This document shows, in pieces, positions 11,105 through 57,000 of a DNA stretch of 64,000 nt. Source of the DNA: Lama guanicoe. Taxonomy: Eukaryota. The position numbers and the translations under genes are program-made. The notes below the pieces were generated by a model, which saw nothing but the letters and a program-made list of their open reading frames with translations, made no database searches and was not told the DNA's origin. The stretch is taken from contig MU053557.1 of NCBI GenBank assembly GCA_013239625.1, forward strand, positions 4,556,123-4,620,122, read 5' to 3'. Numbering within the stretch: position 1 is the first letter of the stretch; the number at the start of each line of letters is the position of its first letter.

Positions 11105-11769
11105 GTGTGCACCATCCTCCCTGGACCGAGGCCCCTGGGAACACCAGCCAGAGGAGCATGGGAGGGAACAGCCTCCCAGTGGTGTCCCTCCTCCCGCCTC
11201 CTCCCTGGCACACGAGGGACCAAGTCCTGCTCAGTGCACAATGCAGCCTTTGATATCCTGGCTGCAGCAGGAGGCCCAGGGAGGATGGGAGGGGCAGCCC
11301 AGCCCTCAGGACCCATAGTCCTTGCACTGTCAGGCCTCTGACTAGGGAGCAGAGCTCCTCCCTGCCTCTCTGCAGATCACTTCATGCCTATCAGGCTGTG
11401 GCACATTCCACACATTCTAGGATTGAGACACACAGTATGGTTCTTGTCGGGGTGGTCAGGGTGGGGGAGGAGGGCAGAGAGCATCCCAGGAATCAAACTG
11501 CTGTTCTTGCTCCCTCCCTGACTGGCCTGGCCCACACTGACCTGCCTGCCACTGGGAAAGGGCTCCCCACCCAGCCTCTCTCTGCAAACACCTCCCTTGG
11601 TTGTCTGGGTGAAGCTGGAGCTGTGGGCGCAGCATCTCACCTCACCCCCAGCAGCATCAGCGAGCCAATCCCCAGTCCTGGCTCCCAAAGTCTTGGTCAG
11701 AAGGAATCCCAGAAATCACCTGATGTAGCCCAGCATCTTACAGGTGAGAGGATGGGGGACCAAGTATGT
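11105..11769 (-). promoter_or_regulatory. SH3TC2: SH3TC2 5'UTR and proximal promoter, with a dimeric SOXE-type site ACAATG-n4-CTTTGA at 11238-11253
   Basis: Lies directly upstream of the ATG. Two inverted SOX half-sites with a 4-nt spacer are visible. SH3TC2 is a known SOX10-regulated Schwann-cell gene. The TSS cannot be placed exactly. Confidence 0.7.
11242..11769 (+). repeat. Near-identical tract 1, copy A (pairs with 37289-37815)
   Basis: About 6 differences in ~528 bp by eye. Confidence 0.97.
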
Positions 11770-13029
11770 GAAGGATACAAGTATGCACAAAAAATGGGCC
11801 CCACCAGACCAAACTCTTTACCATTTTGGATAAGGAGCAGGGAAGGGGTATGCAGTTGACACAGTATGGCTGAATTTCATAAAATCACCCATGACATCTC
11901 CTAAAAGAGACGGAGAAAATACTATTGAATGCCAACGAGGTTAGACAGAGGCCAGACTGATCCAATAACCAAGCTCAAGGATCACTAATTACTTACTGTT
12001 TCCCTAATGCCAGGAGCCAAGGTCAGTGACGAGTGGTCTAAAGAGTGAGGAGCTGTGGGTCGAGGGAAGGCAGGGTCCAGGCGGCCTGCCTTGCAGGCTG
12101 CTTGGAGGCTAGACTTGAGGTCAGTCTCACAAGCACTGTAAGGAGAGAGGTGGCCTGGTCAAGTTCATATTCTGGGAGGAGCACTGGGGTGACAATGTGA
12201 AGGACAACCTAGGGGTCCGTCTCACTGGAGTGATCTGGGGCATCCGATGCACGCATCAGCTCAGCCCCAGGTGACAGGGTCTCAGCCATGTCTCTGAAGT
12301 CTGGCTTCAGTCTCCATGCTGACTCATCTTGACTCCCAGTGGCTGGATGTTCCCTGTGGCGCCGGCATTCATCATACATTACTTCGTTTAAATCTCGTAA
12401 CAGCCTCATCATACCAGCATTGTCATCTCTATTTTGTAAGTGAGGAAACTACCGCAGAGGGGTGTATAACTTGCCCAAGGCCCCACCATTTATGAATGTC
12501 AGATTTAAGGCTTGAGCAGGTCTAGTTGATTCCACAGCCCAAGAACTTCACTTTCATGATATTCAGGCTCTCTCTATGCCTACAATGAGGAAGGATTCGG
12601 TGATCTGATACTGAGGCTTCTGGAGCTAGCTGACCGCTTCTGGAGGGTCTGCGATAGGGGTCTGGTGTGGGGAAAGAGAGTGCAGGGCAGAGCATCTCTC
12701 TGATCACAAAGCCACCGTGGAGGATATTTTTCTGCATAGATCTGCTTAGAGTATCCACTTCCATAACATATCTCATGTCTTTTCCCTCACCAAAGCAGTG
12801 TTTTAAGTATGAATTAGAATGTTTTCTTGGGCCTAACATTAAAGGGTAAGGGTTTCTTTAGAAAGCAGCCACTCAAAACTTTGGGAGGTATGTGAGAATC
12901 AGTGAAGAGAAACCAAGGTCTAACTTGCACATGATGACAAATGCTCAGACTTAACATTTCTCCTTGACTTGCCTGCGCACCATTCCTAGACAGGCACATC
13001 AGCAGAGGTCAGAAATTGTAAATGATCAA

Positions 13030-15130
13030 GACCAACCAGTGGAAGGATCCCTAGGCCATCTGTCAGAGAGGACACCCCAAGGCAGTTGGTTGAGACATAC
13101 ATTTTGGCAAATCTGAAATAAATGGTTCATTCTCAATAAAGTCAGTGCTTTTCTTGGGATGCAAGAAACCAGTGCTTCTCTGCTTATGGGTAGCTCAGAT
13201 GAATTAGCAAGAACAAAGAGCTTTCCAAACAGAGAGAACAGCAAGTGCAAAGGCCCTGGGGCTGGAACTTACCTGGCATGTTTTAAAAGAAAAGCATGTA
13301 TAGTTGGAATCTAGTGAGTCAGGGCAGGATATAGATGTGAGGTCGGAGAAAACAGCAGGAGGCCAGATTGTGTAGGACCTTGAAGGCCATTTAAGACTTC
13401 AGCTTTTAGTCCAAGTGAGAGAGGAGTCAATGGAAGACACTAAATAGAGCAGTCACATGACTGACTTGTGAGGGCAGACCTAGAAAACAAATGCAGACCA
13501 TATGAGAGATCAGAACAACAGGTCCCTTATTCAATCGCATTATTCCGTGAACAAATATTTACAGAGCATCTGCAACATCCAGGCATTGATCTAAGTTGTA
13601 AGGATACAGCAGTGAACACAACAGACAAAAGACTCTCCCTTGTGTAGCTTACATTCTAGTGAGGGAAGAAAGACAAGAAACAGAATATATAAGTACCTTA
13701 TGCAGTGTGTTAGATAGCAGAAAGTGTTATGCAAAAAAAAGAATGGAACTGCCAGAGTAGAGGGGCTGCAGTTTTCAAAAGGGTGGAGAGAGAAATTGTC
13801 ACTGAGAAGGTGACAAATGAGTGACATGAGGAGAGGGCAGGGGGATCATCGGCATCCTGCAGGAGCCCCTGCCAGGAAAAGGGAAGTGCCAGTGCAAAGG
13901 CCCTGAGGCAGAAGTGTGCCCAGCTAGAAAAGGAGCAGGAGAGGGTATAACTTGAGCAGAGTAAGAATAGGGCAGGAAGCAGAGGGCACCCTCAAAGGAG
14001 TAATTAAAAGAGTTTAAAGAAAGAACTATTCACCAAAATGTGGGCAGGGTTAAAGTGAACCAGCAAGGCTGGTGAGGCACCCTAGGGCTGGGAAGACTAA
14101 AAAGTCGTTAGCATCCCTAAGGCTGAAGGGACAAGAGGAGAGAGTGGCTGTCAGAACATAGCAAGAAATGGCTGCAGGCCAGAGCTGACAACAGGAGCTG
14201 TATCATTAATAGAGGAACACAGCCACAGGCTGGCCAAGGCCATGTATGCACAGGGGCCAGAGGAATAAATGCTCCATCCTCTCACCTCCTGTCTTCCATT
14301 GACTGAGCACAACTGGAAGCCAAAGGATGAGAGAGCTGAGCTGAGGACGCCTGTGAAGGCCAGCATCCAGCAGAACAAGGGAGAGAAAGGTGAAGAGGGG
14401 TCCAAAGGATAACTAAAGACCGTCCAGTGCGGGGGGAGAGGGATCAGCGTCCCAAGGATGCCGAGCTTGCTAGACCAGTGTGGGGGCGTGGCTGTCACGC
14501 TGAGTGAAATGGCAGCCACTGCAGCGGTTTGAGCAGAAGAATGATGATGTGATTTATGATCTGAAAGAATTGTAGGAGCAGGAGGCGACTGCAGTAATCC
14601 AAGTAAGAGGAAGTGTGTCTTGGGCCAGGGTGGGGGCAGCGGAGGCAGTGAGATGTGGCGAGATTCTGACTTACTTTGAGGTGGAGGCAGAACTGTCTGC
14701 AGATGAAACACAGGGTGTGAGAGAAGGAGGAGTGAGGGGGGTTCCCCATGTTTGGGCCTGAGCACCTGCAAGGAGCATGGTAGCCATGACTGGAGAGGAG
14801 ACATCCGGAGGTTGGGGCAAGCTTGGCTGATTGGTTGGGTTGACGTGTTGAGTATGAGAAGTCTATTCTCCATCCACTGGAGGACGTGGAACAGGCTGTA
14901 GGATACCCAAGTCTAGAGTTCAAGGGAAAGGCCTCTACTGGAAACTTAGACTTGGGGCTCATGGGGATATAGACACATACTGGAGATATGAGGAGGAAGT
15001 TAGCATGTACCAACGGGAAAAGCAAAGAAAGCTGCATGGAGGAGGTGGCGTGTGACTGTGGCCCTTGAAGGATGAAATTTTGACAGGCACACATAGGTGG
15101 GAAGAAAAAAGCCATAGCAAAGGTGCTAGG
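13030..15130 (+). mobile_element. L2 fragments with a nested MLT1-like LTR piece (~13985-14390); the same composite recurs at ~42540-43860
   Basis: L2 motifs (gtgcaaaggccctgagg, ttcaatc..aacaaatatttac). Shared diagnostic string ggaactgccagagtaga..gctgcagttttca..gtcactgagaaggtgacaa at ~13745 and ~42768. Confidence 0.65.
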
Positions 15131-15390
15131 ATTGACAGTGGGGACAAGTTCAGGAAACAGTACTTCGGTTCAGATGAGCCCGAGGACGGATGATGGAGAG
15201 AGCAGAGATGGAGGCCTGTGAGTTTCTGGTTCAGTCATCAGTGACCTATTTATTCAGTGAACATTACTGGTTGCCTACTTTAAGCACTGTGTTAGTTGTG
15301 GACATTAAGAAGAAGAAGAAGAAATGCTGACGGAGCTCTTATTACATGCTTATGTGAAAATTCCACATCTAATCTTCACCCCCTACTTAA

Positions 15391-16683
15391 AGATCAGGAC
15401 ACCAAGAGTCTGGTGACTCGCCCCAGCTCACCCGGCTGACAGGACACAGCAGAGTCAGGACTGGAGCCCGGGAAGGGACTGCAGGGCCCTGGTCCACACC
15501 ACTCTGCCGGGGGGCCCAGCCGTGTCTGTGTGGTATAGTTGGGCGCCCTTGGAGGTGCAGACAGGTCACTGCGCCAGGGGTGAGGAGTTACCCACACTTT
15601 CCTCTTGCCAAGGGTCAGCCGAGGAACTGGCCCAGCAGCTCTGGGGAGGAGGTGGGGCTGCTGACCAGGGCAGAGGTCATCACACTGCCGGCTTTGACCT
15701 CACCAGGGGCTGCCGACTTCTCTTTCTAAAACATCAGTTTCCTGTTTCTTGGCTCCCACAGCCAACCTTAGGTCAAGGGCAGGCAACTGACGCCTCACCC
15801 TGAAAGGTTAGCAGTCAAAGTGTCTTTATAGTAATGGGTCCACTCCCCAGCCCATGTTAAAGATAAAGAAACTGAGGCCCATAAAGACTGAGTCATGTGT
15901 TCAACACTTACAGACAGTTTTGTGGCAAAGCCTATATGAGAACTCAGACCTCAGGACTCTCAGCTCATCATTCTTCCACGAACCATGCTAAACTAATCAG
16001 TTCATGTTTTAAAAGTAGGGTCCCCAGTGAGCAGGCTGGGACAGGAGGGTGTGTGTGTGTGTGTGTGCACGCATGCACCAAGTACAGGATACAAGCCGAG
16101 GTCTGACACTCCCCACCACTCCCGGGGAAAGGAATTTCTCCTCAGTCCAACTTACCTTTAAGAAAAGTTCAGGTTTTATGCATCTGACCCAGTGAATGGG
16201 ACAGGAAGGAGGTGCCCTTCCATCCAGCGAGGCCACCTCGGGTGTCTTTTCTGGAGACACTCGCACCCGGGCACCAACAGGCCGTGCAAGCAGCATGGCT
16301 GGAAATAGTGAGAAATGGAAGGGACATCAATGCCCATCAATGTGAAAACAGTCAAATACTGATGGTGCATTTAGTCAGCAGTGAAAAAGAATGAAGCAGG
16401 TCTAGATGGAGAGTCAAGGAAAGATTTCCAAGCCATATTATGATGCAAAAACTGAAGAAACTTGCACACAGTGATAGCGTGTGGCCCCACTTATGTACAG
16501 AAGCACACTATATATGTGACTTTGAACATACAGGAAGGAGACCACATCAGCCTGATGATGGTGATTTGTTCATTCACTCCACAGGTGCACATCCAGGGCC
16601 CTCCCCATGCCCCTGGCCCTTGGCTGGATGAGGGGTCAGCAGAGCCCAGAGCAGACAACACCCCTGCCTCCTGTAGCCAGGTG
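15391..16683 (+). repeat. High-identity tract 2, copy A (pairs with 45058-46353); ~85% to 15727, then ~96%
   Basis: Read directly. Duplicated ORFs MFNTYRQF.., MMQKLKKLAH.. appear in both copies. Confidence 0.97.
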
Positions 16684-18684
16684 GAGGGAGGGGGTGAAGG
16701 GAAAGGAACATGATGTCTTTTTCTCGTATACACTTCTGTGTTATAGCAACTTTTCCAGCCACAGTGTTTCATGGTGTTGCCATAATAAATACAAAAAGAT
16801 AGGAACAAAGAGAAGGTGGAAGAAGAGAAGGGAGGAGAGGTGCCTAGATAAGAACAGTGTGTCAGGAGTGGTCGTGGAGGGTCACTTTCGAGCTGACATA
16901 CTCTGGACCTGACTTGAGAGATGGTCTTTGTACCGAGCATCACAGAAGGACCAATTGGAGACTGCCAGGCACAATGTCCACAGCATCTTAGCAGGAAGGA
17001 GGCACATTCCAGGAATAGCAAATCCCGTTACTCCCTACAGTTTCTTGATAGCCTTCAGACAGTGCTGCCTGTAGCTGGTTACAGCCCCTAGAGGAGGAAA
17101 ATTTTAAGCCGAGGATCATCTTCTGGGTCTGATGCTGTGAAAACAGCTGCACAGTCTTCTGGGATTGTGGTCTTGCAGACGTGGCTTTACACCCTCTGCC
17201 CCTGATCTAGTGCCTCCATCTGACCAGCAACCTATTTAGAGGGTCCTCACTGGTGCTGGGATCCAGAGGGTGCAGAGGAAGCCTCTTCTCTTCTTGAAGG
17301 TGCCACACCTCTGCTCAGTCTACCCGAGAGAAGATGGCACGATTGGCTACATGGATTACACTGAGGGACACGTCCTTCCCTACCAGAGCACCTCCCAGTC
17401 TTTGGGCTTGTCCTCTTCTCTCTGCAGAGGAATTGGCAAGACAGCCTTACTGGCCAGAAGGGTAACAAACAGATCTTACCGCCACTCTGATCAACTTACC
17501 TCCCTGGTCAACTTAGGCACTAGATTTGTGGGCAGACAACCTGAATTCAAATCCAGGCTCTGCCATTCTCCAGCTGTATGCTCTTTAGCCCATTTCTTCC
17601 TTTATAAATAACAGTAACAATAATAATTAAGTGGAGGTAACAAAGCAGTTCTACCTCACAAAGGGGCTGTGAGTGTATAACAAGGTGTTTATGGGTGTTT
17701 TCCACTTGTGCAAATCGTGCAAGTGTGCGTGTGCATAGGCACGCACACAGGTCACTGTTCCACTAGTCTTAGGCATGCTCGCCTCGCGTCTGGAGCGGTT
17801 AGGACTCTGAGGAGGAAGAGGCATCCTACATGAGCAGGATGTGCCCGTCAGCTGTGACAGAGACAAAACCTTGGTTCCAAGTAAAACCAGATCTGCCTGT
17901 CCTCAGAGATAATCGGAGAGATTCCTTTCTGTTACCTCGGGCAAAGGCATCCAGCCGAGGCACCCTAGCTGCATGTCTGTCCTTTCTCCTCAATTGGCTA
18001 ATATTTTCAGCAGACAGGAATTTTACAAGGTGTTTACTTAAGAAAGAAAATCTCATACTGAACTATTTTCATCATGATATTTGGCTTTGTGATCTAAGGA
18101 AATGTGTATCTCTCTCTCTCTCTCTGTCCTGGTGTTTTGTAGATAAATTTTGTTGGGCGACCTTGGGCACGTCAGCCATTTCCCCTTCAGTGCTTTCCCC
18201 TCTTCCTTAGGTGATGTAGCTTTGAGTCCCCACACCATTCAGGTCTTGCTCCTGTGAACACTGTCCAAGCTGCTCTGGAAGTGGGGACCCAGATTTCCAT
18301 CCTGTTGTCCAGCACAGCTTCGTCTTCTGCGTTCAGCTCCGAGGCGCTGTCCCTCCTTTGTTTCACTTACTGTACTTCCGTTAATAGATCCCAAGCTTAC
18401 ATCAGGAGACCACTCACATTCTATCCACTGGTAGAGATTTACCAGAATTCAGATGCTTAGATCCTGCCCAACCATGGTGTATCATTATCTCTGGTAGCAG
18501 GGTGATTGGAGGTCTTCTTTTAGACACATTCCAGGTGATTCTAATGTGCATCCAGACTTTGGCAAATAATCCCCGAGAGGTTTCTTTTGCGGGGATGAAG
18601 GGCAGTCAGGTGTAGCAAGGATGTGAATGCCCATTTCTGCTTTCTTATCTTGTGATCCACACCAAAGTTAATTAAAAGCCTTCA

Positions 18685-18699
18685 CCACAAGAGGGCAGC
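18685..18699 (+). promoter_or_regulatory. CTCF-like motif CCACAAGAGGGCAGC (copy A)
   Basis: Matches the CTCF core; paralogous to 46934-46948 (shared flank tgatccacaccaaa). Confidence 0.6.
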
Positions 18700-19291
18700 A
18701 CATGCAGGGAGTTTGGACTCAATGCAAAGAGTCTGAAAGAGTTCCTTTTATTCTTCAAGATCCACAAAGAATCAAATAAGACTTACAATTGTGCAGGAGT
18801 TCCCCGTTGACAAATCCCTCCATCTCATTACATCCTCACACCACATCCGTGACATAGCGGTTGGACCTGACGTTTTTGTAAGTGATGAAAAGGTTGTCTG
18901 AGAGAAATCAGGTGACTTCTCCAAGGTCTTATTGCTAGTAATTGGCAGAGCTGGATTTTCCCAAACATTCCAGCCAGCAACAGCACATACAGCAGCTTTC
19001 ACCACTTAAGACATCCAGGAAGACATGAACCAGACATACACACAGTGCCCAACCCTCAAGTCCTGCCTCAGTCAACATCTATCTAACAATAAAGATCAGA
19101 ATGATTTCAGCCTACGCAGAACCACACATGTGCAGGGGTCACACAAACAATCAGAACAGTTTTATCATACATGCATTTAACTTGAAGGGTTTCAGCATTA
19201 CATGAGCAGCCAGGGAAAGTAGGAAAGAAAAACCATTTAAATAGGGTAGCCAGGGCTTCTCAAACGTTAACAATGGATGTAAAATCTCTGA

Positions 19292-19789
19292 TGTAGTAGG
19301 CAGAACAGTGGTCCCCAAAGATGCCCTAACCCCCAGAACCTGAGAATATGTTACCTGTCCAGGCTGAAGAGACTTTGTTGATAAGGAATTTGAGACGGGG
19401 AGACTGTTTGGATTATCCAGATGTAATCACAAGGGTCCTTATAAGAGGGAGGTAGGAGGGTCAGAGTCAGAAGAAGATGTAAAGACAGAACTAGAAGCAG
19501 AGGTCAGAGTCAGAGGAAGTGGTCCGAAGATGATACTATGATGCTGGTTTTAGATGGAAGAAGAGGCCATGAGCCGAGGATCGTGGGAAGCCTCTAAAAG
19601 CTGGAGAAAGCGAAGCATGGATTCTCCCCTAGAACTTCCAAAAGGAATACAGCCCTGTCAACACCTTGATTTTATTTATCCCAGTAAAACCCACTTCAGA
19701 CTTCTGATGTCTAGAATTTTAAGATAAGAAATTTGTGTGGTTTCAAGCCATTAGGTTTGTAATTACAACAGCCTCAGGTAACAAATACA
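19292..19789 (+). mobile_element. MLT1 (MaLR) solo LTR, MLT1C/D-like
   Basis: tgtagtaggcagaa..ccccagaacctgagaatatgttacc..acaccttgatttt..ggtaacaaataca, with TG...CA ends. Confidence 0.85.
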
Positions 19790-22711
19790 CCTGGGCACTG
19801 GTGAAGTGCAGGTCCTCACCCCGGGCCCAGGCAGGGCGGGGAGCTCTAGCAGGGGCTCTGTGTGGTGCCGGTGCGCTGGCCCTTGGACCGCACTTTGAAT
19901 AGCAAGCCGTCGGCAACTCCCCTGCAACCATTCCTCCAGTGACTGGAGGCCTCCACTTAGCAAGGAAGGGAAGCAGTCTTGGAGACAGCGTTCTTCTGAG
20001 GTGGGCCAGCAGGACAATGTGATGAGTGAAAGCATGGAGAATATGAAGGAAAGAGATGGGTGGCTGGTGTAGGTCGTAGGTAAGGCCACAATATAAACAG
20101 GGAGAAGGGCGGCAAAGGGGTATATGGGGGCAGAGTGATAAGAAGCTGATTAGAGAGGAATAAGAGAATTGCTGGTCATAGTGAGTGCTGGCCTGGGCTG
20201 GCTGTTAGGAGTTTGCAGGGGCCCAGTCATGGGAGCGGATGTCTTTCTTCCAGCAGCCTTGAAACAGAGCAGGGACAGCAGACAGTTCCCAGCTGGCAAA
20301 GCAGGCGTGGCAGGGAGACACTGGGGCAAGAGACTCAGGGGCTGGTGAGAGAGTCACAAAAATGGGTGACAGAGTCAGGCTGGATGTGGAGGCAAGGCAG
20401 GTGGAAAGGGATATGAGAACAGGGACGGACTGTGACAGGAGGTCTTAAGAATAATGTCCAGCAGATTCAGGAGGATACAGGGAGAGAGAGAGCGGAAAGG
20501 TGGAGGGTGCAGAGGTGAGTTTCAGATGTCGTATTTATAAAGGTGGAGGGTGAGAAGGAGCCCCTGCTGAGGGGGAGGGGTGAGACAAGCACCATCCTGC
20601 AGGAAAGTCAGGCATTCTGCTTAAAATGGCGTCATTGCCATAGTAACACATGCATAGAAAAGTTCAAACTGCATACGGCTATAAAGTGCAAGTCCCCTTT
20701 CAAACCAGCTCACCCCCAACCAAAGTTTAGTCCCTTCTCTGGAGGCAACTACTGGCAATTTGGAGTGTCCTTCCAGACCTCTGGCTCTGCATTCCAGACA
20801 CTTGTATAGATGATCCCATTTCGGGGAGAAAGATTGTGCACACATACGTTATATACACATGGGGTGTGTGTGTGTGCGTGTGTGTATGTGTGTGTATTCC
20901 TGATAGGATCATATGTATTATCCCATGTATTAATTTGCTCACTGCTTCACTCTTGGCACTGGAATCACCTGACATTGTGAGAGTGACAACTCTGACTTGG
21001 CCTGTTTCACCTGGCTTATCGCTGGACCCCTCAAGCAGGAATGATGGGAGTTCTCTGTGGAGCAGAGAGCCTTAGTGAGGGCAGCCCACGAAGGGTGAGG
21101 TGACAGCCATGGGTGAAGTTGGCCCAGAGGTAAAGGTAGAGAAAGTGTGTCCTGATGGTTTTTCCATGTGGTTTTCCAAAGTCTAGGAATATTTTCCTTT
21201 TGGGGGTGGGAGATGTTCCTCACCCTTCCTGGAATCAAAACAAACTTCTAAACAAAGAGATCCTTTGATTCCATTCCTTTGACAGGAATTACCCAAGATA
21301 CAAGTCTTCTGACAGCTTTCTCAACTGAGCCCCATGGAGAATCCCAGCCCAGTGGCCCTCTCAGTGGCCACCAATCGATGTGGACATCCTCATGGGTGTA
21401 GCATCTTATATCTGTTGACCCCTTCATGTCCTTATAATTGTGCAGGGGAGAGAAGACTGTTTTCTCATTTGAAGTTATTTGAGGTTTTTAGATGGTCCAG
21501 GTTTCAACAGCCTAATTCATCACAGCCATCTGGGCAGGGTGAAAAGTACCCTAGACAAAGAGGTGTGGGGCCCACATTCAAGTCTGGAGCTGCCCTGCCC
21601 CAGTATGAGGCTGAGAGGCTGAGCTGCTATCCAAGGGTGGGGCTCCTCAGCTATAAAATGTACCCCCTGCCTTGTTAGTTTTATGGACTGATTGGGAGGA
21701 GAAAATCAGAAAGATCCCCGAAGCATTTTTTGTTAATTGTGAGTTGCTGGGAAGCACTGGGTGTGCTTCATTAAGCCAAGGTCACCCAACTGGGGAAAAT
21801 GGTCCCAGAGAAGGAAGTTAATCTCAGCCTGGAATAGAGAGAGAGGACTCAAGACCATGTTGCCTTCCTATATGAATTTATGCTGCTGTGAAAGCACTTT
21901 CATTCAGGGCCACACAAGCCTGTGAAATAAAGAGGCAGGGCTAGAGCTTACTGCAATTGCAAGAGAAGGGCTGGAGACCGAGAAGGGAAGCAACCAGAAG
22001 CCTGCTCCTCTTTGCCTGGTCCCTGTCTGAGTATTTCTCCCCAAGGGGATGGACACAGCCATACAGACTAGTTTTATTTAACAACATTGTGATTGGCTCA
22101 GAGGAAAGACCACACCCGGAAATCTGCTTGGCAGCAGAGCTCACCATACATTCCCAGGCAGGAAAATGCAACCGGGCAGGAATGTACTGAGGAAGGTCTA
22201 AAAGATTGGCACGAGGAGAGAGGTGCTGGATCGGTGCAAGTGAACGATGATACTGAGAGTTAACATTGAAGGACATATGGATGCACTATACTATGTATTT
22301 TAATGAGTTTCCTCATTTAGTACATCACAACCACCCAGTCAGGTAAGTACTGTCATTATCTCCATCTATAGGTGAAGAATCTGAGACCCTGGGAGGCTGA
22401 GTAAATTTCCAAAGGTCATCCATCTGGCAAGTGATGAAGCCAGGAGTCAGAACCTGGCAGGCTGAGTCCAGCACCGGGCTCTTGACCAGGGAACCATGGA
22501 GTTTCCCTAATTTGTGCTTTGGCAAAGAATAATGCAATATACTTTTATAGAGCCCTGGAGCATGGAGAGTGGAGAAAACACTGAAGATGAATTGAGGGAT
22601 TGATTCAACAAGTATTGATTAAGCACCAACTGTAGGGCAGGCATTCACTAACCTAGGTTGGGAAGGAAAAGTGAGTACAGTGAACAGGCACAATCTATTC
22701 TTTCATAAAAC

Positions 22712-23550
22712 TAACAGTCTCATGGGGAAGAGAGATGATAAACAACTGTAACAAATGAATCAGTGATAAGGGGTACGAAGGGGGAGGTAGGGACAGAAGT
22801 TAAGTCTTCTTAACCCCTAATGTCTCACCCACTTGTCCAGCCGCCACCTTCCACACTTGAGGAAGATGACGCAGACGGCACTGATCTGCTCAAGACCAGA
22901 CTACACCCATCTGTTTCCAAGCAGGATTAGAAGCTAACACTGTTTCCTGCAACGCCAATCCTTTCTTCACAGCCCCTCCCGATGACGTGTCTGTTTTCCT
23001 ATCATCGTCTAGCCGTTATACCCCAGTACCCAGGAAAGGGAAACAGCGCTCAGGCATCCCCTTGCTGGCCCCAGGACACAAAGGCCCCAGCCACTCCCCA
23101 GGACCCAGGGAGAAGCCTGGGCAGAACGTGGCCTGGATTACGCGCCGGCGCGTCCACCAGGTGGCAGCAGCGAGCGGCCGCGTTGCCCCCGCCCTGCCTC
23201 CCTGTGGTCCACACCCTCTTTGGGCTCCCGAGCTGCTGGGCTGCAACAGTCGGGGTGTGAGGCGGTGTGAGCGAGCAGGCGCTGCCAGCTTGGCTTCTGC
23301 CCGGCAGTCGAGTCCCAGGAGCAGGAGGGTCTGGGCGCCCGTATCCTCTCTGCCTCCTCCTCCCTCCTACTCTCACCTGCACCTGTTAGTCCGCACACCT
23401 TAAAGGCCAGTGGCTACAGCCAAGACGGGAGACGGGAGACCGGGCAGCAGGAGGGAGAGCACCTGAGGATACAGAGCTAGCGCTGCCCTTTCACCCCTCC
23501 AGGTGATGAGTGAGGTCAGAAGATCTGAAGATTTAAAGGAAACCGGGGCC
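22712..23550 (+). pseudogene. Decayed duplicate of the ABLIM3 5' end: promoter kept, exon 1 deleted, exon 2 truncated before the ATG
   Basis: 22712-22992 matches 56531-56812 with one indel. The rest is ~85-90% identical, lacks the counterpart of 57012-57248, keeps acceptor ccag|GTGATGAGTGAGG at 23502/23503 and stops at ~23550. Confidence 0.92.
23154..23168 (+). promoter_or_regulatory. CTCF motif CCACCAGGTGGCAGC in the pseudo-ABLIM3 promoter
   Basis: Canonical motif, identical to 56983-56997. Confidence 0.7.
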
Positions 23551-23600: not shown

Positions 23601-23604
23601 GACA

Positions 23605-25133: not shown

Positions 25134-27740
25134 ATGAATTAAGGCCACAGACCTGCCACTTTCTGCACTTCACCCTGGGATGTGGTGGGAGACCATCCAC
25201 CCGCATTGCTCATGGCTGAACCCTGCCTCAGCATCTCATTCGTTCATGATATAGTCAAGCTCCCAAGTAAGAAAAGCTGTTACCAGCTCATGAGTGTGGA
25301 GCTGAGCTGAACAACTGCTGACTAGATCAAAGCAAGAGTGAAAATGCTGCTCTCAACAGCACCGTCTCTCAGGCAACAAAGCCAGTTCTTCCCTTCACCC
25401 TGTCTTTTCCTTGAGGCTGCATGGTCCCCACTTTCCTGGGAAATGCAGAAGGGGTTAAATGTAAAGGTCAGAGAGAGACCATTAAATGAAATTTCTTTAT
25501 AGTTAGGCAATTTGAGGGAGAAATCTAGGGACAGGTGATACAATGTTGAGAAACCATGAAGCAAGGCTGACTCTAGTCAGAAGGAAGCTTGTACCACTGT
25601 TACAACAAGTCCGTTGTGAGTCATTAAGAAAATCACAGAATTGCTAAGGGATGGGAAGTGGGGTTGAAGGAATGTCAGGGGGCTGGAAGAAAATGATCAC
25701 AACAACAGATCTTTATGCCCACCCTGCTAGGTTCCAAGCTTGGCTAAAACTAACTTTCCTACTAAGGTGTTGGCATAGAAGTAAAGAATTTTCAAACTGG
25801 AAGATTTTTTAGAAAGTATCCAGTCTAGAATATATCTAGATACATTTTAAAGCCCCATCTAGACCTAGAGAGACACTTTTTAAGTTCAGAATCATTTTTT
25901 TAAAGAGATACAACTTGGGACTTAATAATTAATAACAAAAATCACTAACTGAGTGCTTATTTTGAACCAGGCACTGACATGAGTGCTTCATGTATATTAT
26001 CTCATTTAATCCTCACAACAGCCCTTTGAGGCAGCACTGTTACTGTTTCTTTGTTACAGACGGAGAAAGTGAGGCACAGAGCGATGAAATGCTTGCCAGA
26101 GTCACACTGCCGGGCTGTCGTAGGGCAGGGCACAAGAAGAGCAAGGTAGAGGACAGGGTGTAGAGTGGGGAAGGGGTCAGCAACCCTGTCACTTTCCTTC
26201 TCTCCCACAGCTCAGAGGACCCTGTTTGAAAACACCCGATAAAGAAAACCAGAGGATAAACTGAATCACTCAAGGTCAAGGTAGGATAAACTGTGACGAA
26301 GATTAATATTTTAATGCGTATTTAGCTTTAAAGATAGGGAAATCTGTGGGAGCCAAAAACAAGCGCTGAATTCAAAGCCGTGTGAGCATGCCAGAGCAGA
26401 TGCCATGGGGATCCCATGAAACCATGGGGTGGGAAGTGGGGTTGAAGGAATGTCAGGCGGCTGGAAGAAAACATGGCCCTCAGGCCTGGGCTGGCCTTCT
26501 AATGCCCACCCCTGTGCCCCTTACAGCGATGACCTGGGGCCTCTGTAAGGCAGGAGCGCAGGACTTGTGCTCCCTGCATGAAGCTTGAAGCCTGAAAATG
26601 TTGCTTTTCCATCACAAAGAAATTGGAAAAACTTCCTTCTGCCTTCAGAGGACACCCTGAAGAAGCCGTGCATCTGTGAGAAAAAATCAAACCCCCAGAC
26701 TCACTCCTTGAGAAGGTGTAGGATCTGAATTTACTCCTAATTCCTCAGGAATCCCAGTCAGGGAAGTTGGTGACAAAAATTGGCCCTTGGATGTTGATTC
26801 TCTAGAAAGGCAACAGACACAATTGGAAAAACTACTCTATAAGGATAGTGCAGGGCTCATGAGAAGCCCATTTTTTCAAATGTTGAAGACTAGTTCAGAG
26901 TAGTTCATAATTAAAGAGATATGAATCACTCGAGGAAATTAATTACCTGGAGAGGAAACCAGCAGATGCAACTAGACAGTGAATTAGAATTGCAAGAATG
27001 GGAATAAAAGAACTGGAAATGAAAGTTTTAGAATAAGTATGTTAAAATAATTTAAAAGATTTTTTAAAATTAGGAACTGTACTGAAAGAATAGAGCATTA
27101 TGGGCAGACAAATTTAATAAATACCTAAATACAGCTCCTAGAAACAAACAAACAAACAAAAAATATTGCAATCCAGGACTCACTGGATAGGTTAAACAAA
27201 AGAGTCAACACAGCAGAGGAAAAAAATCACTGAACCTGAACACAGATCTGCAGAAATCACCTGGAATGTAGCTGGAGAAACAAGGTAGAAACTACGAAAG
27301 AATTAACTATGCAAGACAGAGAATAGAATGAGAAGTCGAACATGATCTAGCAGAACTTCCAAAGGGAGAGACTGAAAGGGAGTCAGTATTCACAGGGAAA
27401 ATGACTGAGAATATTCCAGAGTGACAACATGAATCTTCAGGCTGAAAAAGCTCATTAAGTTCTCAAGAGGGCAAATAAAACTAAAATATGATTTCTGTTT
27501 CTCTCAAGGTTTTATCCATTCTGATTTTTCCCCCAATCCTCATTTCTGGGTTTGATTTCCATTTCACTTAAGTGTCCAGTTTTATAGAATGAAAGAATTA
27601 AATCAAAACACAAGGACATAAATTAATAAAATAAAAAAACAGAATATAGGAAGAAGGAAATAACAATGATGAATGATAAAATCAATGAAATATTTCTGTG
27701 TTTTAAGGACTCATTTTCAACCTGCTGCTGTTATAGAATT

Positions 27741-29191: not shown

Positions 29192-32100
29192 TGCTGCTGT
29201 GGAATTAGTTACTGATGCTGGACTCTGCTTGCTTCGCTAACACAGGCTACTTTCCATGTGCAGATCAGAAGTCCCCTTCTGGCGCAGTTTTACTCTCAAT
29301 GTACTACCTGGATGGTCAGAAATGCCTTCTGGAGGGAAGCTGGAGGAGATACACCAGCACAGGGAGGGAAGCTGTGGGAAGAGGATGGAGACTTCAGCAA
29401 ATGCTGGACCACTTTCAGAAACCTGACACCAAATGAACACAGACTAAAAGTGACACCTAGTGGCTCAGTCACCAGCACAGCACACAGGGATGATGTCCAG
29501 GACTTCCACACCCTGGCTGCTGCTTGTAGCAGCTTGTTTGTAGGGTTTTCCTTTGATTGCTGCACTTCATGGATGTCTGTATTCTAGAGGGTGCTTTGAG
29601 GGTGTGAATAAGCCAGTCCTCCTCTCCTCCCATCCCTCCCTGTCTCCTGCTCACTTTCCCCTTCCCTACTGACCGTGCAATCCCTGGTGCATGGGGTCCC
29701 ACAGGGGACCACTGTGCAAGTAAGGAGAAGGTCTCATGTCACCACTGCGATATGGGGATGACGTTCTTTAGGACGAGTGTGCCTCTTACTACTAAGCCAG
29801 CTAAAATGTGATGATCAGATTAATTTAGTAGTACCAGGCTGTTGAAATTCAGGGTCGGGTATAAGATGCTGGGGTGCCAGTGTAGACAAGCTATTCTATC
29901 ACAAGAAGGTCTCAGTGAGGCCTGATTAGGTCTGCCTCACTTCTGCACACAGGACTGAACTTATCTTTCTAAACTCTTTAGCAATTGCCAATTTAAGAGA
30001 TTGTTCTGCATAAAATGGTAGCTAAGATGCAAAACCCCATAAGAGCATTATAGAATCTAACACCACTCCCACCATTCAATTAAAATTGTGTCTCACTCAC
30101 CACCAGTAGTAACCACAACAATAAGAAGAACTAATGTATATTGATCATAAACACGCGCTATGCCTGGCACCATTCTGAATGCTTTACATGTATTAGGTCA
30201 GTTACACTTACGACAATCCTATTAGGTGAATACTAATGTTATACACATTTTATAGATGAGAAAACTGAGGCATAGAGAGCTAAACTAATGTGTCCAGAGT
30301 CACTGAGCTCATAAGCTAATGCAGACACATGATGTTCTCACGTGGCCCCAGGGTGCCTTTGAGGCAGCCTGGCTCTGAAACTCTGTAAACCATTAAGCTG
30401 CACTGTCTCCGAATGTCCTCCATCAGCCAGTCCCAAAGGCCTTTCCTCAGTCCACCCTGCTTTCCTCTCTGGGGCCTGCAACAGTGTTAACCATCCCTCA
30501 ACCTCCCCGGTGGCTGGTTCCTTCCTCCCAGCCTGCTGCTGTCTCTCTCGCTCTGTTTCGTTCCTCTGCTCTCCAAACGGAGGCATCCTCCAAGGTTCTT
30601 CCCCACCAGCCCTATTTTCCATTCTCTTTATTCTTTCTCCCTTTCACCAGGACCGTGGTTGCAGCACTCAGTGGATTTAACTAATGTCAGGACCCTGGGG
30701 TTCCAGACCCAAGGCTCAGCCCTTTCACTCCTGGGGTCTTCACCTTCCCCCGTAGGAAAATGAGGGGATGGTTCTTACCCTGGCTGCACACTAGCCCCAC
30801 CTGGTGGTGGGATTAGAAGGCCATGAGAAGGTTAGGGGTGGGAGCAGCTAGGCCATTTCTAGAATGAATGTGCTTTCCTGAGCAGCAGTTTGGAGATGTA
30901 AGTTGTTTTGAAATTGTCTTCACGCTTCTTAACATATTAGGGGGCTCTTCAAACGCTTACTGATGTGTCCAGGCCAAGTTGCTCCAGACTTAGAAAGCTG
31001 AGTGCAGTTTCCTGGTATCCTCCTTAAAGGTCTCCTGCCTTGGGCTCAAATCCCCATAAAACGGACTACACACAGCCCACGCAAAAGCCAGCATTTACTC
31101 CAACATCCATGTTTGCCCTACCTTCTTCCTCATCCCGTGTCCAGTAAGATTTCTTCTTTATAGAAAAGCAGGCTGAAACCTATGAAATTCTAATAATGTC
31201 TAGTCCTTCAGCACACTTATAAACATGGCTTATCTGTAGTGATACTCCCCTCCTTCTAGGCTTGCTCTCTAAGAAGCAAACACCTGTTTCATTCTGTTCT
31301 GGCTATTTTTGGTCCAGATTTGGCCCTTGGATATGTACTATCACAGTGCTTCTTGTGCACATTAATGTGGAAATAAATTGTCTGAAATTGTCTTAAATGC
31401 GAGTTCAGTTTTCAGCTGTTCTTAGGTGTAGTCTGAAATTCTACATTCCTCCCAGGTCACGCTGAGGTTTCTGGTCTATGGACCACAGTTTGAATAGTGA
31501 GGGTCCGTAATGTTCACTGGAGGGGACGCTTAGTGTGGAGAACAAAGGATCTCCAAGATGACAAGTGGAAAAATCCCTTATTCCTTTCAGCCATGAGCTA
31601 TCTTAACCCTCCATCCTCTGCATAAGGTCGCTTTCTGCATAAATCTGCATGAAGCCAGTATTTCCTGGACGATGTAAAACATTCATCAGATTAAGTGGCA
31701 TCCCCTTGTTTTGCTTGGTTTTGCTTTGTAACCATAACTTCCCTATCATGAGTCGTTCTCCATGGAGAGGGTGGATGAGCCATTTCCTGCCGCGGCAATA
31801 CAGGTGCTGTGCCCCAGTATCCTTCTTTACCCTCTGGAAAACCCTGCTGCCTAAGCCTGCTATAAGCAGACAATTCCCCCGTCTGTTTCCCAAAGCTATG
31901 GCATCGAGTATCTGGAACTTTTATACCCTGGCCTGCTACTGTCTCTTGCTCAAGACAAGTTCCTATTTTCAAGAAGCCATCGAGATTGCACATCTGTCTC
32001 AGTACCTTGCCTTTAGTAGGTGATCAATAACTTTTTTCCAGTTTTGATTGGTTATCTTTATTAGATACCAATAAAGTATCTCCCTGGAGACAGAGAAGCC

Positions 32101-35800: not shown

Positions 35801-37105
35801 GAGTTAAACCCAACCGAGTAATAATTACATTAAATGAAAATGGCCTAAACTCTCCATTTAAGGGGGAGGATATAGCTCAGTGGTAGAGCACATGCTTAGC
35901 ATGTACGAGGTCCTGGGTTCAATCCCCAGTACCGCCATTAAATGAATAAATGAATAAGTGAATGAATGAATAAATAAATAAATAAATAAAACTAATCACC
36001 CTCATTTAAAATTCAGAGATTGCCTGATTGAAGAAAGGAACCTAGATACATAAATATAAAGACATAACTAGGATAGAAGTAAAAGGATGAAAAAGGAAAT
36101 GCTATTTAAATATCAAAGGAAAGTTGGCATGCCTGTAGTACCATCAGTTCAGTAAGCTTCAGAGCAAGGAATATAACCAGGAATAAATAGGGATACTTCC
36201 TAATAATAAAGGAGTTAATTCATTAAAAAGACATACAATATTAGAAGTGTGTGCAGCTAACAGCACAGCTTAAAATACACGAGGCAATAAGTAACAAAAC
36301 TGAAAGAACTAGAAAACAATCTACCATTTTAGTTGGATATTTCAGCAGTTCTCTTTCAGTAATTAATAGAACATTAGACCAGAAAAAAAAAATCAGTAAG
36401 GATACAGAAGACTTGAACAACGCTTTTAATCAACTTGACCTAGTTGAATTTTATATAACAATGCCCTCCCCCAATCAAAATAGACGTTCCTTTCAAATGC
36501 ATGTGAAACATTCACCAAGAAAGTACATATTCTGGGACAAAAAAACAAATATCAAGTTACTTGAAGGATTGAAAGCATACGAGTAGGTTCTCTGAAGACA
36601 GAGGAATTAAATTAGAAATTAATCAAAGAGATGTACCTGGAAAATCCCCGAATATGTGCAAATTAAATAGAACACTCCTAAATAACTCAGGGGATGTAGG
36701 AGAAATCATGAAGGAAACTAGAAAATAGTCCGAATGTAATACAACCTGTCAAAATTTGGGAATGCAACAAAAGCAGTGCTTTAGAAAGGGAACTTTATAA
36801 CATTAGGTGCTTATATGAGAAGAAAAGAAAGTCTCAAATCAATTACCTAAGCAAGTCAAATTAAGCAAAAAGTAAGGAGAAGGAAGAAAGAAAATAGTAC
36901 AAGTAAGAGCAGAAATCAAATAGAAGTTGAACAAATAAATAGATGTTAACTAAACTTACTGCGATGATCATTTCACAATATATGTAAGTCAAATAGTTGT
37001 GCTGTGCACAGACTTATACAGCATTGTGTGTCCATTTTATCTCAGTAAAACTGGGGCAAAATAGAGAATATCAACAAAACCAAAGAACTATTTCTTTGGA
37101 AAAAC
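32890..37105. mobile_element. Nested L1 cluster (antisense ~32.9-35.7 kb, sense ~35.75-37.1 kb) with small LTR-like pieces
   Basis: Minus ORFs RMFTAGLFIIAKTWKQPGCPS and KWREILCSCIGRFNSVKMSVL; plus ORF KKKISKDTEDLNNAFNQLDL. Confidence 0.85.
35862..36002 (+). mobile_element. Camelid Vic-1-like tRNA-derived SINE
   Basis: ggggaggatatagctcagtggtagagcacatgcttagcatgtacgaggtcctgggttcaatcccc carries A and B boxes, then (TAAA)n. Flanked by catttaa on both sides. Confidence 0.85.
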
Positions 37106-37288
37106 AGGCTCTACATCCCTCTGACCCAGGGATGCAGAGATAGCCACCTCTGTCTGCACCACCCTTTCAGGGCTGAGGTACCAACTGCCATCGGCCTGAA
37201 TGGTGTTGGGGGGGCACCTTGCTAACGATGTCCCTCCTCCAACTCCTGCCAGAAACATGAGGGACTCGAAGTCCTTCTCAAAGCACAG
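37106..37288 (-). pseudogene. Decayed SH3TC2 exon 1 / 5'UTR: ATG changed to AGA (37151-37149), splice donor lost to L1
   Basis: AGA GGT GGC TAT CTC TGC ATC CCT GGG (RGGYLCIPG) aligns with ATG GGT GGC TGC TTC TGC ATC TCG GGG. Collinear with 11070-11241 at ~70%. Confidence 0.88.
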
Positions 37289-41700: not shown

Positions 41701-43869
41701 AACCACATGTTGGTTGAAAGTTTCCTCAGAGTCGTTCTGTTCCTTCAGTCTCCTTCACGTCTTCTTCAGGAGTCATACAATCATAAATATGTATGCACCT
41801 AATAATAGAATTTGAGAATACAAAAAGCAAAATAGTGTAACTAAAAGAAAGAAAACCACAGTTGTGTCTGAAGACATCAACACTGAGAGCACAAGTAGAT
41901 GAAGAGAAGTTACAAGAGAAAAGAAGAGAAAAAGTAGAAATTCAACCCATATTTCTTCATCATCAGTATAACCTCACCATCATTAAACATTTATTGTCTC
42001 CCTGAGATATGCTTTACCATCAGGGGTTGAAAACTTCTATGTCTACAAGGGCCAAGCAGTTGCATAAGTTAGTGGAGTTGGCTGGGTGACATCTGCTTTA
42101 GAGGAGGTCAGAGAAGCAACAGAAAGAGGTATAGCCCTGATGCACAGGAGGGGACATGGCCAGTCTAAGGAGGAGGACCCCGCTCAGCTGTTATAAAATG
42201 AGAAACATGCTGTAAAATATGACCAGACTTTCTTATTTGGCATGGAAACCAGAAATCCATGTCTTCAAGTGAATATCCCCATTTTTTTAATGTTGGAAAG
42301 GTAAATCAAAATAATACTTGAAACACTGTGTGGACCGATACTTTAGTACAAACAAACTTGCCTGCAGGCCAAGTCCAGCCCAAGGGCCTTTTCTTTGCAA
42401 CCTCAGATATAAACGCTAATAATTCTTCCTCTTGGAGAGCTCACAATTTAGTTGGAATTACAAGATATGCACTTGCGTTATACGTTTCAAGGGAAACCAT
42501 GGTGGGCGCCATTGAGAGATAAGAACAAAATGGGATGTATTCAAACTTTTTCTCATTCAGCAAACATGCATTTATCACCTACTGTGTTCCAGGTGTTATT
42601 CTAGGTAGTGGAGATTCATCAATGAAAAAAACAGATGAAGTCCTTGCCCTCAAGGATCTAAAAGTCTAGTGAGAGGATAAAGACAGTGAAAAATCATAAA
42701 TGAATAAATTATGTAGTGAGTTATAAGAGGATATGTACTTTTTTTTTAATTAAAAAAAAAAAAGATTGGAACTGCCAGAGTAGAAGAGCTGCAGTTTTCA
42801 TTAGGACAGAGAGAGATGTGGTCACTGAGAAGGTGACAACTGACCAAAGATTTGAGGACGTGAGGAAGGGTGCGTGAACATCCAGGAGAAGAGCATGCCA
42901 GGAGATGGGAATAGCCAGTGCAGAGACCTGAGGCAGGAGTGCATGCTAGAGGAAGACCAAGCTAGAAAGTGTTGCTTGAACAGAGTATGCCAGGGTGAGG
43001 GATCAATCATGTTTGGGAAGAAGCCAAGAGCACCTTAAAAAGGGGTCATTGAGGAGTGTTAAGTAGAAAGGCTGTTTGCAAAGCTATGCACAGAGTTAAG
43101 ACAAACGAGCAAGGTCATGCCCTGGAGAGGTAGCACTAGCTTGATGGCTCTAGCACTTCTAGGCCAGAAGAGGGCAGCAGAGAGCAGGATTTCTGGAACC
43201 TCGAGTGGGCTGGCCGTGGGACAGGGCTGCTGGCAGGAGATGTGGTCTTTGGTGAAGGAGCACAGTCGTGGCCACAACCAGGCTTGGCAAGGAAGGAAAC
43301 AGAAGACTAAATACCTCAACCTCTCTCAGCTCCCATTTCCCCTTCCAGTACCACAGCCTGCCACCAACTGATCTAACTCCAAGCCAAAAGGCAGTGGAGC
43401 ACATTTGAAGATTCCTGTGGCCACCCTGCTGATGAGGAAAGGAGAGGGGAAAAGTCTGGAGAATGGATCCGGAGCGACAAAAGGAGAATGTCCAGGACAG
43501 AGAGAGTAGAGGGAGGTGAGGCTTGTGGTTTTGTAAAGCATGGTAAGCCATTGCAAAAATATTACATTTTACTCTAACTGAAATGTGGAGCCACTGCAGG
43601 ATTTTTTAGCAGAAGATTGATATGTTGACCTTTAATTTGCAAAGAATCACTCTTGCTGTTCTGTAGAAATGGGCTGTGGGTGAGAGAAGGGCAGGAGTGG
43701 AGTCTCCTGGCCTTGACTTGGACCTCGGTGATGGTGGAGATGGTGAGAAGTGTTCTGATTCTGGATATATCCAAATAAATCTAAAAGATTTCTAGTTGGA
43801 TTAAGTGTAGGATGTAGGAGAAAGAGAAGCATCAATAGTGACTAATGTTTTGGTCTGAGCACTCAGAAA

Positions 43870-44560: not shown

Positions 44561-45057
44561 TTTGAAAAAGAAAATTATAAGAACAGTAAAACCAAAAAAA
44601 CAAAAGAAAGAAAGAAAAAGCAAATATATTTACAGAACACCAACTTTGTGCTGGACACTCTTCCAGGCACCAGGGACAAAGCAAGGAATGAAACTGACCA
44701 GGATCCCCACTCTTGTGGAAGTTTCAGAATGACGTTTGTCCAGCATTAGCAAAGACCCACCTGGCAAGAAAGGTCTCTTTCTGGAGACTCACCTACAGCC
44801 CTAGTCCAACAGCCTCTTATTTCTCAACTATTTTCTACTCTACCCTCCACATCAAGACTCCCAGATGCCAGTTCTTTGGTTTTTATAACTAACACTTTGT
44901 TTAAAATTTTATATTTTAGTGAGGAAAACTCTTTTTATATTACATGTAATAATATAAATACATTTTGGTCAACAAAGTGAAAAATAAAAGAAAAAACAAC
45001 TTCACTTAATCCTTACAACACCCCATTAGAGCTTTACTAACATTGTCCCCAGGTTAG

Positions 45058-46353
45058 AGATCAGGACACCAAGAGTCTGGGTGACTAGTCCCAGCTCACC
45101 CACTGACATGTCAAAGCAGAGTCAGGGCTGGAGCCCGGGAAGGGACTGCAGGGCCCTGGTCCTCACTACTCTGCCAGGAGGGCCCAGCAGTGTCTGTGTG
45201 TTGTAGCCCGACTGCCATCAGAGGTGCAGACAGGTCACTGCACCAGGGGTGAGGTGTTACCCAGACTTTTCTCTTGCCAAGGGTCAGCCGAGGTACTGGC
45301 CCAGCAGTTCGAGGGAGGAGGTGGGGCTGCTGACTGGGGCAGAGGTCACCATGCCACCAGCTCTGACCTTACCCGGACTGCTGACTGCTCTTGCCAAAAC
45401 ATCAGTTTCCTGTTTCTTGGCTCCCACAGCCAACCTTAGGTCAAGGGCAGGCAACTGACGCCTCACCCTGGAAGGTTAGCAGTCAAAGTGTCTTTATAGT
45501 AACGGGTCCACTCCCCAGCCCATGTTAAAGATAAAGACACTGAGGCCCATAAAGACTGAGTTATGTGTTCAACACTTACAGACAGTTTTATGGCAAAGCC
45601 TATATGAGAACTCAGACCTCAGGACTCTCAGCTCAGCATGCTTCCACAAAACATGCTAAACTAATCAATTCATGTTTTCAGATTAGGTTCCCCAGTGAGC
45701 AGGCTGGGACAGGAGGGTGTGTTTGTGTGTGTGTGTGTGCACGCACACCAAGTACAGGATACAAGCCCAGGTCTGACACTCCCCACCACTCCCGGGGAAA
45801 GGAATTTCTCCTCAGTCCAACTTATCTTTAAGAAAAGTTCAGGTTTTATGCATCTGACCCAGTGAATGGGACAGGAAGGAGGTGCCCTTCCATCCAGCGA
45901 GGCCACCTCGGGTGTCTTTCCTGGAGACACTCGCACCCGGGCACCAACAGGCCATGCAAGCAGCATGGCTGGAAATAGTGAGAAATGGAAGGCACATCAA
46001 TGCCCATCAATGTGAAAACAGTCAAATACTGATGGTGCATTTAGTCAGCAGTGAAAAAGAATGAAGCAGGTCTAGATGGAGAGTCAAGGAAAGATTTCCA
46101 AGCCATATTATGATGCAAAAACTGAAGAAACTTGCACACAGTGATAGCGTGTGGCCCCACTTATGTACAGAAGCACACTATATATGTGACTTTGAACATA
46201 TAGGAAAGAGACCACATCAGCCTGATGATGGTGATTTGTTCATTCACTCCACAGATGCACATCCAGGGCCCTTCCCATGCCCCTGGCCCTGGGCTGGATG
46301 AGGGGTCAGCAGAGCCCAGAGCAGACAACACCCCTGCCTCCTGTAGCCAGGTG
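45058..46353 (+). repeat. High-identity tract 2, copy B
   Basis: Direct repeat of 15391-16683; the near-identical core is 45396-46353. Confidence 0.97.
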
Positions 46354-46575: not shown

Positions 46576-46686
46576 AGGGAGGGGGAGGGTATGCTTAGCA
46601 TGCACGAGGTCATGGGTTCAATCCCTGGTACCTCCTCTAAAAATAAATAGACCTAATTACCTATCCCTACCAAAAATAAAAATTCC
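46576..46686 (+). mobile_element. Vic-1-like SINE lacking its A-box; perfect 12-bp TSD
   Basis: ggggagggtatgcttagcatgcacgaggtcatgggttcaatccc. TSD aaaaggggcctg at 46564-46575 and 46687-46698. Confidence 0.85.
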
Positions 46687-47169: not shown

Positions 47170-47374
47170 TAGTGGTTCTAAACCTAAGGCAGTTTTGCCT
47201 CCAGGGGGACATATGATAATATCCAGAGACATTCTTAGTTGTCACAGCTGGCTCCTACCTTCCAGTGGGCAGAGGCCAGAGATGCTGCTAAACCACCTAC
47301 AATGCACAGGAAAGCCCCCACCGCAAAGAATGATCCAGCCCAAAATATCAGCGGTGCCACCGTCAAGAAACCCT
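47170..47374. mobile_element. MER20-like hAT-Charlie element
   Basis: tagtggttctaaac..agaggccagagatgctgctaaaccacctacaatgcacagg..aagaaaccctg. Confidence 0.8.
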
Positions 47375-56300: not shown

Positions 56301-56530
56301 AGGTTAAGTCATGAGGCCACATGCCAGCTCTTTGCCTCAGACAGGGAAGTGTTTCAAGGTGGGGATTCCTAGACCTTCTACTCTGAGGGCTTCGTGATAT
56401 TAGACCCAGAGAAGACCCAGGACGTTCTGTCAACAAATATTTATCGATACCTACCACGTGTTGGGTGCTTTTCTAGGTATTGAGGGCCTGGCAATGAATC
56501 TTACGGATAAGACCCATACTTTGATAGAGT

Positions 56531-57000
56531 TAACAGTCTCATGGGGAAGAGAGATGATAAACAACTGTAACAAATGAATCAGTGATAAGGGGTACGAAGG
56601 GGGAGGTAGGGACAGAAGTTAAGTCTTCTTAACCCCTAATGTCTCACCCACTTGTCCAGCCGCCACCTTCCACACTTGAGGAAGATGACGCAGACGGCAC
56701 TGATCTGCTCAAGACCAGACTACACCCATCTGTTTCCAAGCAGGATTAGAAGCTAACACTGTCTTCCTGCAACGCCAATCCTTTCTTCACAGCCCCTCCC
56801 GATGACGTGTCTATTTTCCTATCATTGTTTAGCTTTTAGAACCCAGTACTCAGGGAGGGGAAACAGCGCTCAGGCATCCCCTTGCTGGCCCCAGGACGCA
56901 AGGGCCCCATCCATCCCCCTTCACTCCCCAGGACCCAGGGAGAAACCCCGGCGGGGCGGGGCCTGGATACGCACCGGCGCGTCCACCAGGTGGCAGCAGC
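56531..57000 (+). promoter_or_regulatory. ABLIM3: ABLIM3 promoter: CRE-like TGACG half-sites, CCAAT, GC boxes, CTCF motif at 56983-56997
   Basis: CpG-rich region with ggggcgggg boxes at ~56950-56961, directly upstream of exon 1. Confidence 0.75.

Follow-up and report, generated by a model that had tools for sequence, protein, structure and literature searches.

Three near-identical islands of non-coding DNA in an old tandem duplication beside SH3TC2 in Lama guanicoe, probably kept alike by recurrent gene conversion

We analysed a stretch of 64,000 nucleotides from Lama guanicoe (assembly GCA_013239625.1, contig MU053557.1, positions 4,556,123 to 4,620,122 of the forward strand; hereafter the window, in which all positions are counted), where the interval between SH3TC2 and a likely ABLIM3 gene is duplicated once in tandem and three islands of non-coding DNA are nearly identical between the two copies. 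Self-alignment of the window shows that the duplication is direct and collinear, with copy A at about 11078-23550 and copy B at about 37125-57592, the offset between them widening from 26.0 to 33.8 kb along its length. SH3TC2 was identified by homology: the minus-strand exons 11104-11053 and 306-208 match protein P0003 which, used as a query in a protein search, matched 86 proteins, the majority of them named SH3TC2. The plus-strand gene at 57.0-57.6 kb lies head-to-head with SH3TC2, and we take it to be ABLIM3. In chicken, the synteny data of PMC7402339 place SH3TC2 and ABLIM3 within one 1-Mb window. The exons and promoters of the two genes are as follows.

208-306, minus strand: SH3TC2 coding exon 2; its translation matches P0003 (E 3.9e-4)
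11053-11104, minus strand: coding part of the live SH3TC2 exon 1, copy A; the start codon and a GT donor are both present
56813-57643, plus strand: neighbour gene, with its live CpG-rich promoter, non-coding exon 1 (donor 57172) and exon 2 (57544-57643, start codon 57631)

The islands, together with one of their shoulders and one block of the surrounding background, are listed below; none has a strand assigned.

11242-11769: island 1, copy A; promoter and 5′ leader region, starting 138 bp upstream of the SH3TC2 start codon
37289-37815: island 1, copy B; spare SH3TC2 promoter region
15728-16683: island 2, copy A; contains a MIR-like fragment; putative enhancer
45396-46353: island 2, copy B
22712-22992: island 3, copy A; left edge inside an L2-like fragment
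56531-56812: island 3, copy B; lies upstream of the first exon of the neighbour gene, at a distance of about 200-480 bp
15380-15727: older shoulder of island 2 (paralogue 45047-45395), 13-15% different
13498-14570: background block, copy A (paralogue 42509-43647), 29% different; presumably L2-like with a nested insert like a long terminal repeat (LTR)

Between the two copies, island 1 shows 5 mismatches in 527 aligned bases and one indel, island 2 shows 24 in 954 and two indels (97.5% identity), and island 3 shows one indel and not a single mismatch in 281 aligned bases. Segmentation with a hidden Markov model (HMM) placed the edges at 11242-11758, 15728-16682 and 22712-22992. Divergence between A and B comes in layers of 0-1%, 1.6-4%, 8-13% and 24-30%; three shoulders differ by 13.1%, 11.4% and 8.3%, and five background blocks by 24-30%. 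Against a background difference of 28%, the chance of finding the cores of islands 1, 2 and 3 is 1e-64, 1e-96 and 1e-38, respectively. The longest identical runs measure 250, 207 and 232 bp, thus all more than 200 bp; in island 1 no difference at all separates the two copies over 11384-11633. Near-identity therefore sits, as it does in conversion tracts, within older collinear paralogy and between flanks that are copy-specific on both sides. At an assumed rate of 1.5-2.5e-9 substitutions per site per year, we estimate that island 1 is roughly 2-3 million years (My) old and island 3 less than about 3 My, with 3-14 My within island 2; the shoulders would date from 18-48 My ago and the background from 70-120 My ago.

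The old repeat fragments within the islands (MIR-like, L2-like and L1-like) show how far this homogenisation extends. The L2-like fragment is cut by the left edge of island 3, and its differing columns number 40/103 to the left of that edge and 0/33 to the right (Fisher p 1.6e-6). In the MIR-like fragment of island 2, copies A and B differ at 3 of 109 columns. On both fragments, homogenisation is thus found to reach neutral DNA. Both are recognisable as repeats within the window, the MIR-like piece through 5 matches to dispersed copies (E 0.0015-0.43) and the L2-like piece through 3-4 (E 3e-5 to 0.13). The L1-like piece at 16310-16540 matched nothing within the window except its paralogue, and its identity is for this reason unconfirmed. 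A preliminary description of this DNA had thus located the three islands correctly, with edges that the HMM reproduces, and its account of a background of about 70% identity with graded shoulders agrees with our blocks; it had put island 2 slightly too low, at about 96%, and its statement that identity runs through old repeats holds for the MIR-like and L2-like pieces, the L1-like one being left aside.

The exons that lie inside the duplication have decayed, as the same description had noted for the exons adjacent to islands 1 and 3.

37125-37288, minus strand: SH3TC2 exon 1 with its leader, copy B, decayed; differs by 29%, no longer has a start codon, left side cut by L1-like sequence
22993-23550, plus strand: spare copy of the neighbour gene's CpG-rich promoter, copy A

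In the spare promoter of copy A, a 237-bp deletion at 23178/23179 takes out the exon-1 donor, and the copy of the neighbour's exon 2, from 23503, is devoid of a start codon. With their start codons and this donor lost, the inner exon copies are dead, and each gene has therefore retained the outer first exon. The CpG-rich promoter adjoining island 3 differs by 8-11% between A and B and is thus no longer converting. Over the aligned columns the spare promoter has 21 CpGs versus 21 or more in the live one (A 11 and 14, B 11 and 17), and a 38-bp identical run within it holds a motif at 23154 that we take to be CTCF-like.

Comparison with other mammals was possible for island 1 through mis-called open reading frames (ORFs) that translate its DNA, that is, at the amino-acid level only. 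Some of them extend named SH3TC2 models of bovids, deer, rodents and afrotherians at the N-terminus, and others are short unnamed ORFs (23 matches in one protein search and 31 in another, plus cluster members). ORFs that continue into SH3TC2 exon 1 were called A-type, and those that end like the camelid segment 37270-37245, B-type; the panel aligned to the window comprised 29 ORFs, ruminant-like A and B types included. Several ruminant-like forms have B-type ORFs, and so does one other mammal, whose ORF P0299 scores 497 against copy B versus 462 against copy A. Since B-types exist in other mammals, copy B predates the camelid-ruminant split. The protein searches yielded no clear primate or rodent copy B, P0302 and P0304 being ambiguous, and DNA pattern scans of metagenomes gave 0 matches.

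The decisive observation is that both camelid copies share residues found nowhere else in the panel, at codons 11448 (0/22 covering sequences), 11439 (0/24), 11430 (0/24) and 11457 (0/20). For the first three of these codons, one alternative state is shared by ruminant A, ruminant B and most outgroups; all four fall within the 250 bp over which camelid A and B do not differ. Our script had flagged 11 camelid-shared codons, of which we relied on these four; 11575, 11570, 11551, 11545, 11542 and 11297 were set aside for want of a clean outgroup or for few rows, and the stop codon at 11379 was not counted because the ORFs are stop-free by construction. Camelid-only states present in both copies cannot be produced by independent conservation, and island 1 was therefore homogenised after the camelids split off.

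The direction and the limits of the exchange can be followed in part. Ruminant-like copies differ from each other over 11472-11412 and at the gene-proximal end; among the 25 ruminant-like ORFs that cover 11472-11412, 10 of the 11 that are A-ended show one form and 9 of the 11 that are B-ended another, 3 having no end. At 11454 and 11412 the states found in camelid B are those of the A lineage, and the most recent camelid sweep of island 1 therefore likely went from A to B. Judging from these ORFs, the limits of homogenisation in island 1 differ between lineages. The residue at 11542 is common to ruminant A and B, a weaker sign of what may be a separate exchange in ruminants, and the F at 11235, common to camelid B and ruminant A, may reflect a B-to-A transfer or a single-base change.

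Part of island 1 is also conserved between species.

11245-11434, no strand assigned: conserved core of island 1, 190 bp, defined by comparison of orthologue ORFs
11238-11253, plus strand: candidate SOX dimer site at the left edge of island 1; first half-site changed in copy B

Within this core, ruminant A matches the camelid sequence at 58-60 of 63 codons, ruminant B at 53-58 of 62-63, and two outgroup ORFs at 56 of 63. In a simulation of 63 codons, the median number matching was 39 at 20% difference and 57 at 5%. The central part of island 1 behaves otherwise: only 19-30 of 39-42 codons match other mammals, though the camelid paralogues are identical there. Orthologues are thus about as similar as paralogues over 11245-11434 and not over the whole of island 1. 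Ruminant-like B retains an ancestral residue at 11271 where ruminant A has changed. The tandem CATTC motif at 11403-11418, which we presume to be TEAD-dimer-like, has flanking codons that are nearly invariant across mammals and a spacer codon in four states. Both candidate SOX dimer sites, recognised with general SOX motifs and a dimer consensus, show residue changes in ruminant-like B, at 11445-11442 and 11249-11238. In rodent nerve, SOX10 is reported to be bound just upstream of the Sh3tc2 start (PMC3413122).

Because the core is conserved between orthologues as well, selection likely seeds island 1, and conversion and selection both act on it. The repeated non-allelic gene conversion proposed in the preliminary description is therefore supported, with cross-species evidence for island 1 in the camelid-only states of both copies; its preference for conversion over purifying selection does not stand, given the strong conservation of the proximal 190 bp. 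Likewise, the similarity between orthologues that it had named as contrary evidence does exist in this proximal part and is absent from the island's centre.

We consider it quite probable that, in one old tandem duplication whose inner exons are dead, non-allelic gene conversion has recurred and so kept the three islands alike, and that purifying selection on short regulatory cores has seeded it. Purifying selection would slow divergence at these cores, so that runs able to pair, of about 200 bp or more, would persist. Conversion would then recopy the cores, its tracts dragging along the neighbouring neutral DNA, while indels such as the L1-like sequence left of 37125 and the 237-bp deletion would have ended exchange elsewhere. 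The latest sweep of island 1 in camelids would likely have had the live copy A as its donor and the spare copy B as its recipient. Conversion needs a few hundred similar bases, as summarised in PMC3924837, and the longest identical runs of the three islands match this requirement. For islands 2 and 3, we infer the same mechanism from what the window holds.

Several points weigh against this interpretation. The cross-species evidence covers island 1, that for islands 2 and 3 coming solely from the window. We infer the clade labels of the unnamed ORFs, and all ORFs were found by similarity and are free of stops, so that the data lean towards conservation. The neutral camelid-ruminant difference of about 20% is a general background figure, and so is the substitution rate. 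Moreover, 3 of the 22 end-typed ruminant-like ORFs are mixed, and these may be contig chimeras or real conversions; finally, P0099 has the camelid residue at 11527.

Could the spare copies be functional instead? Under this explanation, which is that of the preliminary description and which we find plausible without giving it even chances, island 1 in B, island 3 in A and island 2 in both copies would be enhancers or alternative promoters whose likeness is itself selected. Ruminant-like B keeps most core codons despite its ancestral residue at 11271, so B may be constrained; the spare CpG-rich promoter retains its CpGs and an intact CTCF-like motif; and two fox SH3TC2 models begin in the B region, by 8 residues only. 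However, the candidate SOX dimer sites are altered, both of them in ruminant-like B and one half-site in camelid B, the island limits move between lineages, and the CpG-rich promoter proper no longer converts. Furthermore, a dead copy would stay similar through conversion from the live copy alone. A bolder form of this idea, which we put forward tentatively and regard as somewhat unlikely, is that the duplication was kept for its regulatory DNA alone: each gene would draw on the spare promoter of the other half, which would serve it as a distal enhancer or an alternative start and would have been kept matched to the live one by conversion for more than 60 million years across laurasiatherians and perhaps also in humans, at the locus of type 4C Charcot-Marie-Tooth disease (CMT4C).

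Conversion seeded by selection has also to be set against simpler explanations. Conversion might persist by chance in the last insertion-free stretches, selection playing no role; the old repeat fragments lying within the islands would fit, as would the halting of exchange at large indels reviewed in PMC3924837. But two of the three islands adjoin first exons, the core of island 1 is conserved across mammals and the background divergence suggests, at the assumed rate, 70-120 My, which makes such a leftover improbable. It is much harder still to accept that both copies are duplicated conserved non-coding elements independently under purifying selection: the closeness of the proximal 190 bp to ruminant orthologues speaks for it, yet the centre of island 1, identical between camelid paralogues, has diverged in other mammals, and for island 1 the camelid-only states contradict it. 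An artefact of assembly or polishing, or three recent small duplications, could be suspected from the lack of a single substitution in island 3. We give this very little credit, since B-ended ORFs in other mammals place the second copy in independent data and the islands are collinear, with diverged homologous flanks and graded shoulders that polishing would not make from 70% identity; it could raise at most the last percent.

Further features concern the transcripts and the repeats of the locus. The right edges of islands 1 (11743/37789) and 2 (16681/46351) lie at or just past plus-strand splice-donor-like sites, which possibly belong to exons of a non-coding divergent transcript resembling SH3TC2-DT, described for humans in PMC7318790. 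On the minus strand, 12227-12313 matches the N-terminus of the elephant SH3TC2 model P0234, a possible upstream exon beyond island 1, and 54224-54247 matches 8/8 N-terminal residues of the fox SH3TC2 models P0178 and P0185 (E 1.8e-4). The B region may thus hold an alternative first exon far upstream, although the camelid sequence has no GT donor there and its A paralogue reads differently. Brewer and colleagues reportedly studied SOX10/CREB elements of SH3TC2 in 2014. A transfer RNA-like match at 35866-35937 was the sole match of the Rfam scan; it belongs to what we take to be camelid Vic-1-like short interspersed elements (SINEs) derived from transfer RNA, at 35866-35990 and about 46580-46660. 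The first SINE fits a camelid source; the second is confined to copy B, and was thus inserted after the duplication. In SH3TC2 intron 1, a CpG-rich block at 1950-2950 (70% GC, CpG observed/expected 0.89) has a T-rich end and similar 12-mers flanking it. We presume that it resembles a retrocopy of the 5′ external spacer of precursor ribosomal RNA rather than a promoter; the Rfam scan of 1850-3050 gave no match above threshold. A 46-bp direct repeat (25648-25693 and 26426-26471) is identical at 44/46 positions, its units 778 bp apart, and 29200-29590, which by eye looks like decayed coding sequence straight after L1-like DNA, is possibly a processed pseudogene.

We found no description of a duplication of the SH3TC2-ABLIM3 interval in the literature, most subscription papers being outside our coverage. 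The supplements of PMC5100263 have no SH3TC2 or ABLIM3 entry, those of PMC7430845 hold one gene-list entry, and PMC3706849, in its accessible passages, mentions segmental duplications only for another gene. Ectopic conversion in humans is treated in a preprint (bioRxiv 10.64898/2026.08.26.747289). SH3TC2 causes CMT4C neuropathy (PMC10638072); if humans keep copy B, near-identical promoters could misplace short reads and chromatin immunoprecipitation (ChIP) peaks, and could donate promoter variants. More generally, with its dated layers and lineage-specific limits, the locus lends itself to a compact test of whether constraint on non-coding DNA is able to keep conversion going, as it reverses the usual pattern in which lasting concerted evolution is typically coding and paralogue promoters diverge fast.

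The interlocus conversion of duplicates reviewed by Fawcett and Innan (2011, PMC3924837) is alike in its mosaic identity and its need for a few hundred similar bases, in ending at insertions or large indels and in persisting under strong purifying selection. Long-lasting concerted evolution in yeast, as presented there, is however almost always coding, with non-coding homology lost, whereas here the exons are dead and the islands non-coding. SIGLEC11 and SIGLEC16P, as far as covered in PMC5701461, have likewise undergone repeated lineage-specific conversions that include upstream DNA, have species-varying boundaries and involve a non-functional copy; but that primate tract of 2-3 kb includes paired-receptor coding exons, while the present one excludes exons and its duplication is apparently much older. 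HBB-to-HBD conversions (PMC4390247) are independent promoter conversions between old eutherian tandem paralogues, but both of those loci are whole genes and no gene stands behind the spare copies described here. In the duplicated control regions of bird mitogenomes (PMC8435663), homogenisation is also piecewise, duplicated parts degenerate and sections give conflicting trees, in the different recombination setting of mitochondria. Finally, conversion has been suggested as a source of promoter similarity between mammalian paralogues (PMC10100218), yet that similarity drops fast with duplicate age, whereas the islands stay at 97-100%. The process itself is therefore known; what is unusual is its inverted form, in which regulatory DNA evolves in concert while the exons are dead.

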